Virus genome (UHGV): UHGV-2031204
From: a virus
Length of the DNA: 64,000 bases
Reading direction: 5' to 3' (one strand)
Shown: in pieces, positions 10,456 to 46,065 of the stretch
Layout: every line of letters starts with the position of its first letter
Numbering within the stretch: the stretch's first letter is position 1
The notes under the pieces: model-generated
What the model was told of the DNA's origin: nothing
Database searches by the model: none
The model's input: only the letters and a program-made list of their open reading frames with translations
Made by a program: the position numbers and the translations under genes

Positions 10456-10522
10456 TTTTTTATTTTTACGATTTCTACCGTTATTGTGTCGGAGGAACCT
10501 CTACAAAAAAGGATAATCAAAA

Positions 10523-22133: not shown

Positions 22134-24242
22134 ATGATACTACGTGAATCGGACTGGCGTTATTATCCAGGCGCTATTGTTGACGATAAAACCACAAACA
22201 AATCGTTTATCAAGTTTGCAAATATCCTAAAAAAGCTGGGTGTAAAGCACTATTATATTCATCTCGCCTTACATAACCCTTTACTGCAAGGGGTCGATCC
22301 TTTTGACGAAAACCTAACGGACGAACAGAAAGCGTACATCGCCATCGAGTGTGCTGAAAACCCTTGGTACTGGTTTCGAGAGTGCGTCAGGGTACCTGCG
22401 GACGGTATGAAATACGGGTCGCCGTTCCGTATCGACCGTGGTAACTTTTCGATGTATTGGATTTTCTTCAACAACATCGACGCCGCCGTCGAATTCCTCC
22501 GTCAGCACGGTAAAACCGTCGGGATGAGCGGATTACTGCTGTGGTTAATTCGGTTTCTGGAAAACTCTCGTACGATTCTTATCACAAAAGGACCGGCACT
22601 GCGTGAAGAAACCATTAACAAACTTAAGCAACTACGTAACGGTCTACCGTCGTACTTGTGGCCAGCACATCCAGACGATCCAGATAACCGCGAAACTTTT
22701 GCGTGTTTAGCCCAGGGTAACAAACTGATTACGGGCATCGGCCAAAACGACCCAGAATCAGCTAACGGTATCGGTCGTGGACTCACCGCTGGTCGTCTGT
22801 TCTCGGACGAAGGACCCTTTACCAAAAACGTACACCACATTCTACCGGCAGCGCTGGCATCCGGTACAGCTGCACGTCGTATTAACGAAGCGGAAGGTGT
22901 TCCTTACGGCAACGTATTCGCAACAACCCCGGGTGACTTAGCGACGGAAGAAGGCAAGTACATGTACGAGCTGATGACGTCAGGGATTATGTGGGATGAG
23001 CGCTATATCGACATTCCAACCCGTAAACAGCTCATTGACATCATCCGTTCTAACTCCACGGCAGAAGTCCCACGTATCATGTTCTACGTGAAGTACAACC
23101 ACCGCCAGCTCGGTACCAGCGATGAGCAATTAGCGGCAATGATTGCGAACGCCAAAGGTACTCCTGACCAGATCCGTCGTGACTTCGGGGGTGAATGGAC
23201 GACCGGTGGCTTGAACAAGCCGTTCTCAGCGGAAGATGCAGATCGTATGAATGCTTCCCGTATGCGTGCTGTGTTTAAAGATATTTCACCACAAAACTAC
23301 GTTACCGACTGGTACTACACCGAAGAGGAGATGATGACGAAGCTCAAAGACCGACACGTCATCGGGTTGGATACCTCTGAGGCTGTGGGTCGAGACGCGA
23401 TCGCCATGTCTATTGTTAACTCTGTGACCGCAGAGTACGCAGGTAAATTAACCGTTAACGAATCTAACGTTATCTCTTTCGCGATTCATTTAGCGGATTT
23501 TATGGTGCGATATCCTAACACGGTACTAATCCTGGAACGGCGGTCTACTGGCTCGTCTGTGGCTGATGCGATTATCCTGCAGTTACAGTCTCGTGTCACG
23601 GACTTACATCGTCGTTTATTTGTGAGAATCACTCAGGACTACTCACGTACGGACGATCTCTACAAAGAGTATCACCGTGGGCCTATTGGTAACGCTGAGA
23701 AGTTCTGGAATAAATTCCGTAAATATATCGGTTTCTCAACCGACCAGGAAAAACGTCGTAAACTGTACGGTGAGGTATTCACCACGGCGTTGCGCTTATC
23801 CGCGGATAAACTCCGTTGCGGAGAACTCATCGACCAGATACTTAACCTCGTGGAGAAAAATGGTCGTATTGACCACAAAGCTTCAGGTCATGACGACCTC
23901 GTGATTTCTTGGTTACTTGCGATGTGGTTATTGCTGCTTGGGAATAACCTGGGGCATTATGAAATCAACAACAGTCGATTGATGATGCGCAATCGTAATT
24001 TAGTCGAAAATCGTGAAGGGGTGGATGAGGAATTACAACTCGAGGAGGAGGCGCGACAGCAGGAACTGATGGGGGAAATTGAGCGTCTTGTGCGAACCAC
24101 AAACGGGTTATTAGACCCGGTTCAAGCAATGGCTGCTCGTAACCGTCTCCAGTCCCTCATTGCTCAACTTAACACTGATACACAAAACGTGGCGTCAATG
24201 GAAAGCTTGAGAGAGCTTATCCAACGCCAGAGGATGAAGTGA
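22134..24242 (+). CDS. terminase large subunit (ATPase plus RNase-H-like nuclease)
   Basis: LRQHGKTVGMSG resembles the T4 gp17-type Walker A (RQLGKT); HVIGLDTSEAVG and GHDDLVISWLLAMW resemble terminase nuclease acidic motifs; GGAGGTGAGGAG RBS. Confidence 0.7.
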   Translation: MILRESDWRYYPGAIVDDKTTNKSFIKFANILKKLGVKHYYIHLALHNPLLQGVDPFDENLTDEQKAYIAIECAENPWYWFRECVRVPADGMKYGSPFRIDRGNFSMYWIFFNNIDAAVEFLRQHGKTVGMSGLLLWLIRFLENSRTILITKGPALREETINKLKQLRNGLPSYLWPAHPDDPDNRETFACLAQGNKLITGIGQNDPESANGIGRGLTAGRLFSDEGPFTKNVHHILPAALASGTAARRINEAEGVPYGNVFATTPGDLATEEGKYMYELMTSGIMWDERYIDIPTRKQLIDIIRSNSTAEVPRIMFYVKYNHRQLGTSDEQLAAMIANAKGTPDQIRRDFGGEWTTGGLNKPFSAEDADRMNASRMRAVFKDISPQNYVTDWYYTEEEMMTKLKDRHVIGLDTSEAVGRDAIAMSIVNSVTAEYAGKLTVNESNVISFAIHLADFMVRYPNTVLILERRSTGSSVADAIILQLQSRVTDLHRRLFVRITQDYSRTDDLYKEYHRGPIGNAEKFWNKFRKYIGFSTDQEKRRKLYGEVFTTALRLSADKLRCGELIDQILNLVEKNGRIDHKASGHDDLVISWLLAMWLLLLGNNLGHYEINNSRLMMRNRNLVENREGVDEELQLEEEARQQELMGEIERLVRTTNGLLDPVQAMAARNRLQSLIAQLNTDTQNVASMESLRELIQRQRMK

Positions 24243-25983: not shown

Positions 25984-27108
25984 ATGAGAAATTACTTACG
26001 TAAACCCGTTTGGCACAGAATGCTGCGCGAAGGTACCATCGACCGAAATCAAAACGTCAAAATGTGGGTTCTTCCACACGGCGTAATTTGTGATTTAGTT
26101 CGTGTCGGTGGTATGGACATTTTGCGCAACGGTACCTACGATGCGGTCAACTCGTTTCTTGCACGCGAATTGGCAGAGGCAGGTTTACATGGCGAAATTC
26201 TGTTTTACACCACACGCGTTATTCCACAAACCCTGTCGAAATGGTTAACGTACTGGTTGTCTGGTGATCCTGACGCATCGGACCCAGAACTCAACTCAGT
26301 AACAATTACAACGTTGGGACAATACCCAACGAAACCGCTACCATTTCAGGTAAACGTAGTAGAGCCGTTAATTGTAAAAGCAGGTGACGTCTTCGACACG
26401 ATTAAAGCTAAATCCAGAAACCAAGCGGTTTCACAGTTCCTCGTAGAAACTGAAAATGAGGTGTTTCGCCTGGAACCCGTCCGTAAAACGGATGCCACGT
26501 TACTGGCAGTCACCGACTACGGTGTGGTGTGCCGTTCTACAGAAGGTCACACTTTCCTGTGTACAATTTTGTCTCGTCGTATACAAGCCCAGTTAGCGCA
26601 CTACAAACTGAGTTTGAACGACATCATCGGTACTACGTTACGCATCGAATACACGATGTACACCGATGGCAACAGGTTGTGTAACTACAAGTCACCTATC
26701 GCGTATCGAGCACTGGCGTTAGACAGTCTCGGTGATTGGGTTTCAACGACATACGATGGGCCTTCACCGTTTAAAACAATCCCGACACAACGGCCTGCGT
26801 TGCTGACGGTTACACGCTGCAATCGTGCTGAAATCTACGAGGAAAATGGGGTGATTTATGGCTTAGAACGTGAGACAGGATTAACGCTGTTTCGTTTCCG
26901 CCGAGGCCCAGAATACGGGCGTTACGCTGCCGTTTTCGAACGGGAAGGGGAACAAGAAACCTGGCTATTCGATTCCGATTTCTCGGTTGACGTTATCGAC
27001 CCTGAAGGGTTTATTGCTTCGGTCGGAAATCAGGTGTTCTACGCCACCGGTTACAGTTTGGTCGATGTGAAACTGTACTATCCGTCAAAAGAACTGACGA
27101 CTCTGTAA
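25984..27108 (+). CDS. hypothetical protein (early-promoter-motif gene)
   Basis: 374-aa ORF with CCTAAAGGAG leader and upstream promoter-like motif; strong terminator follows. Confidence 0.7.
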   Translation: MRNYLRKPVWHRMLREGTIDRNQNVKMWVLPHGVICDLVRVGGMDILRNGTYDAVNSFLARELAEAGLHGEILFYTTRVIPQTLSKWLTYWLSGDPDASDPELNSVTITTLGQYPTKPLPFQVNVVEPLIVKAGDVFDTIKAKSRNQAVSQFLVETENEVFRLEPVRKTDATLLAVTDYGVVCRSTEGHTFLCTILSRRIQAQLAHYKLSLNDIIGTTLRIEYTMYTDGNRLCNYKSPIAYRALALDSLGDWVSTTYDGPSPFKTIPTQRPALLTVTRCNRAEIYEENGVIYGLERETGLTLFRFRRGPEYGRYAAVFEREGEQETWLFDSDFSVDVIDPEGFIASVGNQVFYATGYSLVDVKLYYPSKELTTL

Positions 27109-27118
27109 AAAATATTCT

Positions 27119-27156
27119 GGGGAGACTTCGGTCTCCCCCGTTTTTATTTTTTTTTG
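27119..27156 (+). terminator. intrinsic terminator
   Basis: GGGGAGACTTCGGTCTCCCC hairpin with TTCG loop followed by long T-run. Confidence 0.8.
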
Positions 27157-27659
27157 CCCAAAATCAAAAAACGCGATGAGAGCGATTCTAACGCATTTTT
27201 CTTCCAGGTGGTACGTTCGTACCCCTTACCCACGTTTATCTCTCCAGAGAGCTTCCTACGAAGAATTTGAGGGTGTTTTGGTTGTGGGTTTTGAATTTAT
27301 TTTCACTCAACGCCATGAAACCGCGATTTTGTCGTTCGTGCTGTCACGCCAACCCCTATCCCTGGGTGGGACGAAAACCCACCCCATCGTAAAACGCTCT
27401 AAAACGCTTTTTGACGCAAAAATCTTCTCAAGGGGTACACTTGGGTACCCGAACCCCGTTTAATTCGTTACAGCTCGATTGAGAGCGTCTGAGGGGCATT
27501 CCCCTCGACCAGTTCCACCCCACCCTCGGGTCGGCGAACCGGCCGCCGCGACGATCAAAAAAACATTCACGCTTCGCGTACTAGCGGATCAGCTGGATTG
27601 ATCAACTTACTGAATCTTCACACACTGAAGATTCAGGTTGAGTAGTTCTCTAGCTTTGG

Positions 27660-27940
27660 TTTTTTGATCTTTTAAAATTTTTAATACTCTTCGAGAGACT
27701 TAGTGTCTCTCGAATCGATCTTAAATTTTTAACTCTTTCAAAAATCTGATCTCAAGATCTCTTCCTTATACGCGTGTGCGCACGCACACGTATAGTATAA
27801 TATATTTATTTATAAATATATTATTCCTTTAGGATCAAAATAATAATACCTTTAGGTATTATTTAATTATATATTTTAATATATATTATATATAAATATA
27901 TATAAAACGCGCGCGATCCTTATTATGAGATCTGATCTCG
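27660..27940. other. candidate replication origin or DNA-unwinding element: AT-rich core with palindromes, flanked by a GATC cluster
   Basis: Eight GATC sites between 27666 and 27937; ~115-bp almost pure A/T core with palindrome AATAATACCTTTAGGTATTATT; no credible ORF. Confidence 0.3.
27767..27794. repeat. alternating pyrimidine-purine tract (Z-DNA-prone)
   Basis: TATACGCGTGTGCGCACGCACACGTATA at the edge of the AT-rich core; a second CGCGCGCG tract at 27908..27915. Confidence 0.8.
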
Positions 27941-28802
27941 CTATGACCCCCCTGAGGGGGTAGGGATCGGTGAGCGGTATTTTCCAGAAAAAACCGAAAA
28001 TCGTACCCGGGGTAATTCGCCAGGGTAAAATCCCCACCTGGGGGATCGGGTAGGGGTCTACCCCGAACACCTGACCGAGGGGTGTAAAACCCATTCCCCT
28101 TTTTCGAACGTTAAAACCCTATGGTATGTTCGGAGGATTTGCGTGGGATGATTTACAAATCCAACCACGAAGATTTTTCGGAGTTCAGGAGTTTACTGCT
28201 CACAGCTCAAACACGATTTCTGTCTGCGAAGATTCAGCAGAGCTCGAAGCCCCCTGACCGGATGTTGGTTTGGGGGTTGTTTTTTCGAGTGCATGGAATT
28301 TATTTCGCCGTGTACTGGGAAAAACAAAACGTTCAGCCTAACACTGGAGTTTGTTTTACTATGGGGTTTGAAAATCGATTTGCCAATCGAACTTACCCCG
28401 AGGGATTTTTGGAATCCCCAGAGTTCAGGTGCTCGGTACCGTTTCCCCGACTTACGAGTGTTGGGGAGCCCGCGCTATCAGTGACGCGTGGACCACATGA
28501 GAAAATCCGAGGGAACCGTGGCAGCCTCTGGGAGCGACGTTGGCGAAAGGTCCGTAGAACTTACCTGCGGGCAGCCGACGGTGGGATACGCTCCCAGAGG
28601 TGCGGCCAGAATGCGAATTACGACGTTGCGTCGAATGACCCTGCTCCAGGTAGCGCTGGCAGTGTGATGTCCTCTAGCTTGACGGCTCGCAAAGACGAGA
28701 GGGGTGCGTACTCCCGTTGAGAAACGCCGGTACGCAGCTGAATTATTTTTTTTTACAGCGTTTCCTGTTGGTGTGACACAAACCACGGCAGGAGATTTTA
28801 AT
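27940..28802 (+). other. hairpin-dense non-coding segment (candidate structured RNA or array of protein-binding palindromes)
   Basis: Stacked inverted repeats: CCCCCTGAGGGGG, AAAACAAA/TTTGTTTT, GGGATTTTTGGAATCCC, and a perfect 12-bp repeat CCTCTGGGAGCG/CGCTCCCAGAGG (28525..28536 and 28589..28600); only SD-less, Arg-rich ORFs. Confidence 0.3.
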
Positions 28803-29165
28803 ATGGATTCCAAAAACACCACTAACGTGGAATTGGATGTTCAGTACAGGCTCGATGAGTTGGCAGCTCTGTTAAAAGCCCCGGAGGACTGGGGATGCAC
28901 GGAGCCAGCGTTACTTGATTTGATCAAGAGCGTGCGGATTTACCAACCCGTCGAGATTTACATCACGGTAGTTGTGGAAGTTCACGATGGTTATTGCGTG
29001 GAACACATCCCTAGCCCTATTGCGCATTATCCGAGCTATCGAGAGTGTCTCCTGGTAGCCGTTCGTGAAGGCTTGGCTCGTGCGATTCGTGAACATGTTA
29101 CGCGATGCACGAACCCGATGGCAGCTGTTGATCAGGTGGACAGCAATGAGTTAGGAATTCTGTGA
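28803..29165 (+). CDS. hypothetical protein
   Basis: ATG 28803 after GGAG at 28791; stop overlaps the HslV-like start; ORF track 5' extension lacks an RBS. Confidence 0.6.
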   Translation: MDSKNTTNVELDVQYRLDELAALLKAPEDWGCTEPALLDLIKSVRIYQPVEIYITVVVEVHDGYCVEHIPSPIAHYPSYRECLLVAVREGLARAIREHVTRCTNPMAAVDQVDSNELGIL

Positions 29166-29665
29166 TGACCACGATTGTTTTTGACGGAAAGACGTTAGCT
29201 TGCGACGGTCAAGTCACCGTGGAAGAGCGTAGTGCTGCCACGCAATACCGTAAGATCCACACGCCGCCCGAGGGTACGACGTGGAATCTTTTGGGTGAAG
29301 ACGTAAAAGCGTTTGGTTTGGCAGGCGATGTCGCCGCATTGCAATCTGTGCGTCAAGAACTCACGCTTGAACGTTTCGGTGGTATCGAACGGGGTGGGGT
29401 TCGTTTTGAAACGACGTATCCCGAACAGATTGATTTTATCGTACTTGCTGTTTTGACAGACGGGCGCGTTATCGACGCCTCGAAATGCAAAGACAACAAA
29501 TACGCCAGTTACGTGTTTGTAGAGCCACCGTATGCGATAGGCTCAGGTGCACACTATGCCCTGGGTGCGTTAGGCGCAGGCGTTGACGCCCCCACTGCGG
29601 TGGAAGTGGCGAAACGTTACGACCTGTACAGCGGTGGACAAACGCAATCACTTAAGCTGTTTTGA
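29165..29665 (+). CDS. hslV: HslV-like Ntn-hydrolase peptidase (proteasome beta-type)
   Basis: MTTIVFDGKTLACDGQVT matches HslV [22 protein letters not shown] including the Thr nucleophile after Met; AFGLAGDVAA resembles AGFAGGTADA; YAIGSGAHYALGALGAG resembles IAIGSGGPYAQAAARAL; ~166 aa. Confidence 0.75.
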   Translation: MTTIVFDGKTLACDGQVTVEERSAATQYRKIHTPPEGTTWNLLGEDVKAFGLAGDVAALQSVRQELTLERFGGIERGGVRFETTYPEQIDFIVLAVLTDGRVIDASKCKDNKYASYVFVEPPYAIGSGAHYALGALGAGVDAPTAVEVAKRYDLYSGGQTQSLKLF

Positions 29666-29672
29666 TGTATTA

Positions 29673-29748
29673 GGGGGTGTAGCACAATTGGTAGTGCAGC
29701 GGTCTCCAAAACCGAAGGTTGGGAGTTCGAAACTTCCCGCCCCCGCCA
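29673..29748 (+). tRNA. tRNA-Trp (anticodon CCA)
   Basis: 76-nt cloverleaf read by hand: acceptor GGGGGTG/CGCCCCC, D-arm GCAC-AATTGGTA-GTGC, anticodon loop CTCCAAA, T-arm GGGAG-TTCGAAA-CTTCC, discriminator G, encoded CCA; very similar to E. coli tRNA-Trp. Confidence 0.85.
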
Positions 29749-45995: not shown

Positions 45996-46026
45996 GAAGG
46001 GGATTGGGCACCCCCTTCTTTTTTCT
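45996..46026 (+). terminator. intrinsic terminator
   Basis: GAAGGGGATTGGGCACCCCCTTC hairpin followed by T-run. Confidence 0.8.
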
Positions 46027-46065
46027 TATTTACAGCAGCAGCTATCAATGTGATAGGAGTAGAGA

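Follow-up and report, generated by a model that had tools for sequence, protein, structure and literature searches.

Does a hairpin-dense stretch of a giant phage genome encode a protein, act as DNA or function as an RNA? The question is raised by positions 27940-28802 of the 64,000-nt stretch of UHGV-2031204 analysed here (the window, to which all positions refer), a segment that an earlier note had considered to fit a large non-coding RNA (ncRNA) better than a protein gene. Our comparison of homologous loci bears out this preference, as they share no conserved reading frame and the stems of the 3' two-thirds are kept by compensatory change in six lineages. The segment probably harbours a large structured ncRNA of roughly 0.5-0.7 kb that belongs to an uncatalogued family confined to SPN3US-like Enterobacterales jumbo phages; the RNA would be made as a stand-alone transcript of the plus strand and act as a folded RNA. 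That the element functions as a folded plus-strand RNA we consider highly likely; for its being a stand-alone transcript with a role in trans, we put the chances at even or slightly better. Conservation, covariation, strand and the lack of a coding signal could be established directly.

Homologues were retrieved with the invariant core CGGCTCG-N3-5-AGACGAGAGGGG as a probe and by protein-anchored retrieval. A megablast search against the phage collection gave no match, and relatives came only via blastn, which revealed short collinear islands in SPN3US-type and Erwinia phages within a stretch left without annotation in most records, and via the protein anchors. Carriers belong to Seoulvirus (SPN3US, SPLA3, Proteus phage 7, SPAsTU, pEa_SNUABM_29), Machinavirus (Huxley, Machina, Caitlin, pEa_SNUABM_4/9/43, pSal-SNUABM-04), Erskinevirus (Stratton, phiEaH2, Asesino) and Wellingtonvirus (Kwan, Wellington and uncultured relatives), together with the uncultured lineage L016 and the window's own clade, clade A (L006, L007, L008, L028, L031, L032). 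A blastn census with the Huxley copy as query recovered 47 GenBank records (Erwinia 27, Salmonella 19, Escherichia 1). The element is present in one copy per genome and in the same syntenic position in all lineages sampled, 3' of the phrog_2921 (minus strand)/phrog_8136 (plus strand) gene pair and an AT-rich block, and 5' of an operon encoding an HslV-family peptidase and tRNA-Trp. Phage EL has the HslV gene, but the 650-nt gap upstream of it contains none of the motifs. GC-rich chance matches from the metagenome scan (L021/22/24, L030/36) were dropped after alignment.

The 3' core of the window is 87-89% identical to that of SPN3US-type phages, whereas the adjacent HslV proteins are only about 35% identical, which argues for selection on the nucleotides themselves. 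The motifs are collinear: a GC hairpin followed by UUUUUCGAG, its A-rich partner strand, CCUAACAC, UUCAGGU and ACCGUGGYAGC, then the AACUUAC-loop hairpin, GGCCA, a CGGCG-UUG-CGUCG hairpin, CUUGRCGGCUCG-GAAAGA-CGAGAGGGG, the terminal hairpin and GCUG. Every one of them is kept in the shortest natural version (Huxley/Machina type), which measures about 415 nt, counted from the TATG upstream of it to its terminal hairpin; SPN3US-type copies reach about 815 nt.

No convincing gene was found in the region 27109-28802. What could speak for a protein is a 199-codon open reading frame (ORF) in the window, and the hypothetical proteins that the GenBank records of Huxley, Machina, Parshik, Stratton, Asesino and phiEaH2, as well as of pEa_SNUABM_42/43, Kwan and pEa_SNUABM_29, place on one or the other strand of the homologous stretch. 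Pfam and PHROG give matches for the real genes flanking the ORF and none for the ORF itself; relative to its nearest relatives the ORF shows indels of 5, 1, 1, 1 and 2 nt, and its frame, when translated in the relatives, meets stops at codon 34-125 in five of six. Substitutions fall evenly on codon positions 1, 2 and 3 (22/20/25 against L006, 24/21/26 against L007), with no third-position bias. Homologues with a conserved, synonymously varying protein sequence, which the earlier note had named as evidence against an RNA, are thus not what the comparison shows. Across clades, length changes of 1-2 nt are located in the most conserved loops, which breaks any reading frame; a small ORF starting from a conserved UUG in the core was discarded on these grounds, given the loop indels in SPLA3, Proteus phage 7 and L016. 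Thus, the protein-coding reading is already refuted by the comparative sequence data, and both the long ORF and the small annotated ORFs are extremely improbable as genes. The hypothetical proteins annotated over this region are probably spurious; SPN3US and most GenBank records leave it unannotated.

All five stems described by the earlier note were located in the window sequence at the places it gave for them (Table 1), including the perfect 12-nt inverted repeat CCTCTGGGAGCG/CGCTCCCAGAGG (28525-28536/28589-28600, arms 52 nt apart). By our own arithmetic, chance would yield about 0.005 perfect 12-nt inverted repeats within 100 nt in a sequence of 863 nt. The epithet 'GC-rich' holds only relative to the neighbouring AT-rich block, as GC content is 0.48-0.56 for a window mean of about 0.46. 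The plus strand of 27935-28760 folds at -330.9 kcal/mol, compared with -281.3 +/- 10.2 for dinucleotide shuffles (z -4.87), whereas the minus strand reaches -279.4 kcal/mol (z -2.18) and is therefore about 50 kcal/mol weaker. G-U pairs account for 152 of the 1097 paired cells (our own sum over the covariation table for the eight 3' helices) and would be A-C mismatches on the complement. Together with the folding asymmetry, this fixes the plus strand and favours RNA over DNA.

RNAalifold, run on a sequence-only MAFFT alignment of 14 sequences, predicted 49 pairs, 22 of them with compensatory double changes. For the covariation test, 22 distinct sequences were aligned plainly with MAFFT (A4) and 51 pairs from eight helices were scored, with the same helices having their 3' partners slid by 1-3 columns as a control. 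In the structure, 92.4% of cells are standard pairs (36-48% in the slid controls), 24 pairs are changed on both sides (5-8) and the covariation score is 0.353 (0.055-0.090); none of 500 shuffles matched the observed values. The covariation check in homologous phages suggested by the earlier note was consequently passed, with compensatory changes spread over six lineages and both the shuffle and the slide controls satisfied. Twelve further pairs were tested in the 5' module, six of which have double changes, giving a total of at least 10 helices with the 3' set. Conservation of the stems is, however, not uniform: it applies to the 3' two-thirds of the segment, including the 12-bp inverted repeat, but not to the two 5'-most stems (27948-28064), which are variable even in close relatives and have no counterpart in other clades.

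The folded RNA would comprise a 5' module (GC hairpin, U-run/A-run helix and CCUAACAC loop), a 3' domain in the form of a multi-helix junction closed by CCGU/ACGG and bearing the 12-bp inverted-repeat hairpin with its AACUUAC loop, and a terminal hairpin forming the GNRA-capped end of the conserved body. In the 5' module, the H1 stem changes within clade A from ACC/GGU to GUU/GGC, and one A-U pair to G-C. Pair 39-88 of helix Px occurs as CG:10, UA:9 and GC:3, and the hairpin pair 54-73 as AU:10, CG:9 and UA:3, with none broken (alignment A6). A longer helix (28277-28296/28308-28327) is in competition with the AAAACAAA/TTTGTTTT pairing, and it is this longer helix that is backed by covariation across all clades. 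Motif M0 is replaced by UCUAACAC in clade B and by GCAACAC in clades D and E. The segment with the hairpin at 28402-28418 is missing from the shortest versions, for example that of Huxley. The GAACUUACC of the conserved hairpin loop (28558-28566) recurs at 28387-28394, in the clade-specific insert between CCUAACAC and UUCAGGU.

In the 3' domain, the helix formed by GGU-G-CUCGG (28428-28436) and CCGAG-GGA-ACC (28507-28517) varies in sequence and keeps its complementarity in every clade (CUCGG/CCGAG, CUCAG/CUGAG, AUCGGC/GCCGGU, UCCUGUC/GACGGG(A), UUCGGUC/GACCGG); it was read by eye, and bulges shift its register in the alignment. The long hairpin contains the 12-bp inverted repeat as helix 3 (CCUCUGGG/CCCAGAGG in the window, CGCCAGAG/CUCUGGCG in SPN3US-type phages) and an inner hairpin (28551-28571) with the 7-nt AACUUAC loop; its pair 139-234 is found as CG:12, UA:7 and UG:3, and its pair 141-231 as AU:13 and UA:6. 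Within the invariant core there is a CUCG/CGAG hairpin, and the ACGG of this core (28682-28685) is base-paired to the more 5' CCGU (28516-28519). The terminal hairpin (helix 8) has double changes in 9 of its 14 pairs and 98% of its cells paired, and its tetraloop is GAGA, GUGA, GGGA or GCGA according to lineage, always of the GNRA type, a feature typical of RNA. Reading CCUAAC...UAUGG as an 11-nt GNRA receptor was abandoned, the GG partner not being conserved beyond clade A. In Erwinia phage Kwan (L005, 3369-4002), and also in Wellington and L019, a 634-nt HNH endonuclease cassette takes the place of 21 nt of the RNA that directly precede the invariant core. The site is a module that the window's clade lacks, and the insertion re-creates a GGGGTGATCC...ATCTTGG junction; the cassette has no counterpart in L020, an uncultured relative that is 99% identical.

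Table 1. Positions of the predicted RNA, its parts and the adjoining sequence elements in the window
Feature	Position	Strand	Remarks
Upstream partner element	27767-27939	not assigned	order kept in every lineage
Clade-specific GC-rich hairpin segment	27940-28123	+	no homologue found outside clade A
Stem CCCCCTGAGGGGG of the earlier note	27948-27960		
Stem GGGGTCTACCCC of the earlier note	28053-28064		
Chance ORF, 199 codons	28121-28720	+	no family match, frame broken in relatives
Universally conserved core (5' module, 3' domain, terminal hairpin)	~28249-28743	+	collinear motifs, covarying helices; 22 distinct sequences, six lineages
GC-rich hairpin H1, GCCCCCTGACC...GGTTTGGGGG, then U run of UUUUUCGAG	28249-28276	+	in every clade, stem sequences differ
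Helix Px, UUGUUUUUUC/GGAAAAACAA, around hairpin H2b	28277-28327	+	inverted repeat I1, covariation; invariant UUUUUCGAG at 28281-28289
Stem AAAACAAA/TTTGTTTT of the earlier note	28321-28328/28350-28357		
Motif M0, CCUAACAC, presented in a hairpin loop and flanked by the AAAACAAA/TTTGTTTT stem	28337-28344	+	(near-)invariant in clades A, C and M
Clade-specific hairpin GGGATTTTTGGAATCCC (GGGAUU-UUUGG-AAUCCC), a stem of the earlier note	28402-28418	+	A-U to G-C in L006/L007
Motif M1, UUCAGGU, and 5' strand GGU-G-CUCGG	28424-28436	+	UCAGGU invariant in 22 sequences
Motif M2, ACCGUGGCAGC, and long hairpin, closing GGC/GCC	28515-28607	+	helices 2-4; double changes in 10 of 18 pairs
Small hairpin CGACG-UUG-CGUCG	28621-28633	+	helix 5
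Small hairpin CUGCUCCAG-GUAGCG-CUGGCAG	28641-28662	+	helix 6; only 74% paired, register differs in clade A
Invariant core CUUGACGGCUCG-CAAAGA-CGAGAGGGG	28678-28704	+	most conserved island
Terminal hairpin: 8-bp and 4-bp stems, 2x2 internal loop, GNRA tetraloop GAGA (28719-28722), then invariant GCUG	28702-28739	+	
Promoter-like site P2: T run, TTTACAG 28752-28758, N13, TGTG 28772-28775	28746-28780	+	next gene ATG 28803

Where would such a transcript begin and end? The limits proposed by the earlier note stand for about 28249-28743. They do not for 27940-28100, which is clade-specific, or for 28746-28802, where the next gene has its ribosome-binding region and promoter-like site. Positions 27940-28240 are conserved only in the window's clade, with indels in hairpin loops and few compensatory changes (5 of the 138 pairs predicted). 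The first 160-300 nt of the segment may lie upstream of the transcript, and 27940-28100 may be part of the upstream GATC/AT-rich element; the transcript may start further upstream than the core, at some point in the interval from about 28008 to 28123.

In clades B-E and M, a bipartite motif, P1, of the form (T run)-TTTAC(A/G)N-N13-15-T(A/G)TG lies immediately 5' of the RNA, 50-70 nt downstream of a conserved GATCCTTATTA. It recurs about 65 nt past the core, ahead of the next gene, in most lineages and is absent there in SPAsTU, SNUABM_29, SNUABM_9, SNUABM_4 and Huxley. In the window this downstream copy corresponds to P2, a putative promoter of the next gene, and is one of three intergenic copies of the motif in the 64 kb (10459-10493, 28746-28780, 46023-46057), all 25-35 nt 5' of start codons. 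The late promoters of the phiKZ non-virion RNA polymerase carry TATG, the G being the start site (PMC5312081). The promoter-like bracketing of the RNA in clades B-E and M, these phiKZ promoters and the presence of a phiKZ-type RNA polymerase in the window together support the reading of the element as a transcript of its own. On the 5' side, the window's segment 27940-28123 contains two GGGATCGG repeats (27963, 28042), a degenerate P1-like site (TATTTTCCAG 27978-27987 ... TCGTACCC 28001-28008) and a weak candidate promoter (TTTTTCG 28100-28106, N13, TATG 28120-28123) with a terminator-like hairpin and T run (28079-28104) just 5' of it. No canonical intrinsic terminator follows the terminal hairpin; a T run begins 6 nt later and is not conserved in other clades, and the element does not have, at its 3' end, the GC hairpin with directly adjoining U run of a small RNA gene bounded by an intrinsic terminator. 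A second recurrent plus-strand motif, AAATAA-N-TAGATATTATC (25936, 33913, 41715, 41794, 49777, 51286, 55074), lies in several cases about 40 nt 5' of start codons (25984, 55114) and may represent another phage promoter class. The AT-rich block was itself considered as a phiKZ-type early promoter and rejected: its edge resembles the AR9 early consensus, but it is unique in the window and it is the TAGATATTATC motif that recurs upstream of genes.

The genes of the window include those for phiKZ-type split multisubunit RNA polymerase subunits, the tail sheath, the large terminase (terL, 22134-24242) and DNA polymerase. The HslV-family peptidase gene downstream of the RNA (29162-29665, phrog_1040) encodes a protein that is at best 31-40% identical to those of isolates (SPN3US-like Salmonella, Escherichia and Erwinia jumbo phages, and Pseudomonas phage EL), and 96-98% identical to those of close uncultured relatives in IMG/VR and metagenomes. 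The phage of the window has no isolate representative, and near-identical uncultured genomes (about 224.5-224.8 kb) occur in several metagenomes. The tRNA-Trp gene identified by ARAGORN (29673-29748) lies about 930 nt downstream of the RNA, and relatives carry tRNA arrays downstream. On the other side, the space between the phrog_8136 gene and the AT-rich block is occupied in relatives by one or two genes of about 170-200 amino acids. In the window, the corresponding stretch (27109-27760) offers only a 95-codon ORF (27176-27463), which matches no family, along with an island (27518-27579) 84% identical to Stratton gp286 and a bidirectional terminator-like hairpin (27119-27138). A PDB sequence search with the two upstream proteins gave nothing.

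The partner element directly upstream is characterized by an alternating CG/TG palindrome (27767-27794) and the motif CGCGCGCGATCCTTATTATGAGATCTGATCTC (27908-27939). The AT-rich block (27781-27935), with small palindromes inside and ATCTGATCTC on both sides, is the only long one in the 64 kb, and the GATC cluster around it (27553-28044) is the densest in the window, with 13 sites in 27500-28100 against 1.9 expected, a seven-fold enrichment. In every lineage the GATC cluster, the AT-rich block, CGCG(T)GATCCTTATTAnGAGATC and the RNA follow one another in this order. By its sequence, 27553-28044 (core 27767-27939) is a candidate replication origin or packaging (pac) site. The curve of cumulative GC skew has almost no slope as far as 27 kb and a steady upward one from 28 kb on, genes being mostly on the plus strand on both sides. 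At least eight metagenome contigs (L007, L008, L023, L025, L027, L031, L033, L011/L026) have an end in or at the AT-rich block, which is also where two isolate records start, those of SPN3US and Proteus phage 7 (JN641803, MT679221); these ends are 730-915 nt upstream of the RNA core, and other contigs read through. Such ends fit an origin or pac site, and an assembly break in extremely AT-rich repeats explains them equally well.

Does the element belong to an RNA family that is already known? It is of the size and complexity of several large classes, and the HNH endonuclease gene inserted in Kwan and Wellington is reminiscent of introns. Nevertheless, a divergent group I/II intron, RNase P RNA, transfer-messenger RNA (tmRNA), GOLLD, ROOL, 6S or Y RNA appears very unlikely. 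An Infernal scan (cmscan) with all 4227 Rfam 15 families returned only tRNA, whether the whole window was searched at gathering thresholds, 27100-28900 at E up to 10 or six homologous loci at E up to 5, and no family recurred in the permissive scans. ARAGORN found tRNA-Trp only and no tmRNA, so that none of the classes named in the earlier note (group I/II intron, RNase P, tmRNA, retron) has a match in Rfam or ARAGORN. The element is also intergenic in all lineages, with no flanking exons and no intron model match; it does not match the covariance models of GOLLD or ROOL and does not qualify as an RNase P, tmRNA, 6S or Y RNA. Domain V of group II introns has an asymmetric bulge; the terminal hairpin was examined as such a domain and rejected, its internal loop being a symmetric 2x2 one and a model match being absent. 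Full-text searches of the literature retrieved no description of such an RNA in SPN3US-like phages or other chimalliviruses. What the element does share with the large ornate ncRNAs of phages is a length of more than 400 nt with many covarying helices, the lack of a conserved reading frame, and a phage-borne location beside tRNA genes.

Among these ncRNAs, GOLLD was reportedly described by Weinberg et al. in 2009. Like the RNA of the window it is large (over 400-800 nt), phage-encoded, intergenic, near a tRNA island, rich in covarying helices and more conserved in 3' than in 5'; unlike it, it occurs in Lactobacillales, mycobacterial and marine phages, whereas the window RNA occurs in Enterobacterales jumbo phages. 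The two have no sequence or covariance-model similarity. ROOL, of about 600 nt and thought to act without protein partners, is likewise a phage or prophage RNA found near tRNA islands, but it gave no model match, has other motifs and contains pseudoknots of a type not identified in the window RNA. Published work, which includes cryo-electron microscopy of GOLLD, describes GOLLD and ROOL as phage-borne RNAs encoded near tRNA islands that form RNA-only cages and whose function is unsolved, GOLLD having a conserved 3' and a variable 5' region (PMC12286853). The location of the window RNA beside phage tRNA genes also invites comparison with smaller RNAs. The stable RNAs C and D (species 1 and 2) of phage T4 are non-tRNA species of about 120-140 nt in the phage tRNA cluster; the likeness is one of position only, and they are short and show no similarity.

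The most serious competitor of a free RNA would be a cis-acting leader, that is, a long 5' untranslated region controlling the HslV-peptidase/tRNA operon by attenuation, antitermination or a switch. We consider this possible but doubtful. The element is always directly upstream of the operon and co-oriented with it, no canonical terminator separates the two, and H1 with its U run is terminator-like, while pairing of the same U run with the A-rich strand of Px offers an attenuator-like alternative; most lineages other than clade A also have a GGGG...CUCC...GGAGG triple with two alternative pairings. However, this alternative-pairing module is absent from the window's clade, and in most lineages a promoter-like site, P2, separates the RNA from the next gene, which gives the operon its own start. 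The first downstream gene varies, being a 120-amino-acid ORF in the window, HslV itself in SPN3US and two small ORFs in Huxley, and known leaders are far smaller than an element of 400-800 nt that has a multi-helix junction and GNRA loops. In several clades, GGAGGUGAUCC, 19-25 nt upstream of the core (e.g. L010, L046, L038, L042), is complementary over 9-13 nt to the 3' tail of 16S rRNA, and the adjoining CUCC can pair with GGAGGUGAUCC or with the upstream GGGG. A role of this complementarity to the anti-Shine-Dalgarno sequence was not retained: it is real in several clades, but the full match is absent in the window's clade, in Huxley-type phages and in L016.

Quite unlikely, in our estimation, is that the RNA is part of the adjacent AT-rich/GATC origin or pac element, as a primer or R-loop transcript, as a cofactor of genome-end processing or as hairpins acting in single-stranded DNA. 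The invariable order of the elements, the GATC enrichment, the uniqueness of the AT-rich block, the shift in the slope of cumulative GC skew at 27-28 kb and the several independent contigs ending there are all compatible with such a coupling. In phage P1, clusters of GATC hexamers flank the central region of the pac site. The packaging RNA (pRNA) of phi29, 120-174 nt long and encoded at the genome end of protein-primed podoviruses, is a structured phage RNA beside packaging-related DNA, just as the window RNA abuts the candidate pac/origin block 3.5 kb from terL; it is, however, much shorter, and nothing links the window RNA to a portal or to packaging. ColE1 RNA II, which needs a specific fold, and the transcripts of T4 oriF/oriG and of the T7 primary origin are origin-associated RNAs that likewise adjoin an AT-rich unwinding region. 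These are transcribed into the origin, whereas the window RNA points away from the AT-rich block, and primer or R-loop roles do not require a conserved 350-nt tertiary-looking fold with GNRA loops. Helices rich in G-U pairs speak against a DNA structure, assembly failure alone predicts contig ends at an extremely AT-rich repeat, and adjacency in a syntenic phage genome is weak evidence for a functional link.

Several observations also weigh against a stand-alone structured RNA. The upstream promoter-like motif of the window's clade is degenerate, its best position weight matrix scores being 6.2 and 3.7 bits compared with 24-36 for good sites. Since the T run past the terminal hairpin belongs to the next promoter-like site and there is no terminator, read-through into the HslV operon is possible. 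Only about six deep lineages exist, so the covariation counts are not independent events. Cs 28516-28517 are claimed by two exclusive pairings, GGU/ACC and CCGU/ACGG, and the AAAACAAA/TTTGTTTT stem and Px are mutually exclusive. A closing helix UUCAG/CUGAA is broken by its only two variants and was left out of the model. Finally, the comparison with GOLLD and ROOL is an analogy only.

A stand-alone ncRNA is still the reading we prefer, although we infer its transcript ends, its independence from the downstream operon and its mode of action. It would be transcribed from a phage-type promoter just upstream and would serve not as a message but as a scaffold or as an RNA-only or ribonucleoprotein (RNP) particle, whose invariant single-stranded loops would contact a partner in the manner of GOLLD or ROOL. 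A bolder proposal, which we regard as rather unlikely, is that it is an essential RNA-only or RNP machine of these phiKZ-related phages, either a GOLLD/ROOL-style multimer or a cofactor acting with the AT-rich/GATC element in the start of replication or in packaging.

The analysis corrects spurious 'hypothetical protein' entries in several GenBank records. It also points to a conserved candidate for the origin or pac element of phages in which neither replication nor packaging has a known starting point. It is rare for a new family of large and intricately folded RNAs to be found in bacteria or phages, and GOLLD, ROOL and OLE have provided unexpected RNA-only architectures, their biology being unsolved. 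The carriers of the family described here include culturable and genetically tractable giant phages of Salmonella, Escherichia coli and Erwinia, such as SPN3US and Machina, and the natural variants of about 415 to about 815 nt make expression, knock-down, partner pull-down and cryo-electron microscopy feasible. If the RNA does prove to be a machine, be it a multimer or a cofactor of replication or packaging, it would be the first of its kind in SPN3US-like phages.

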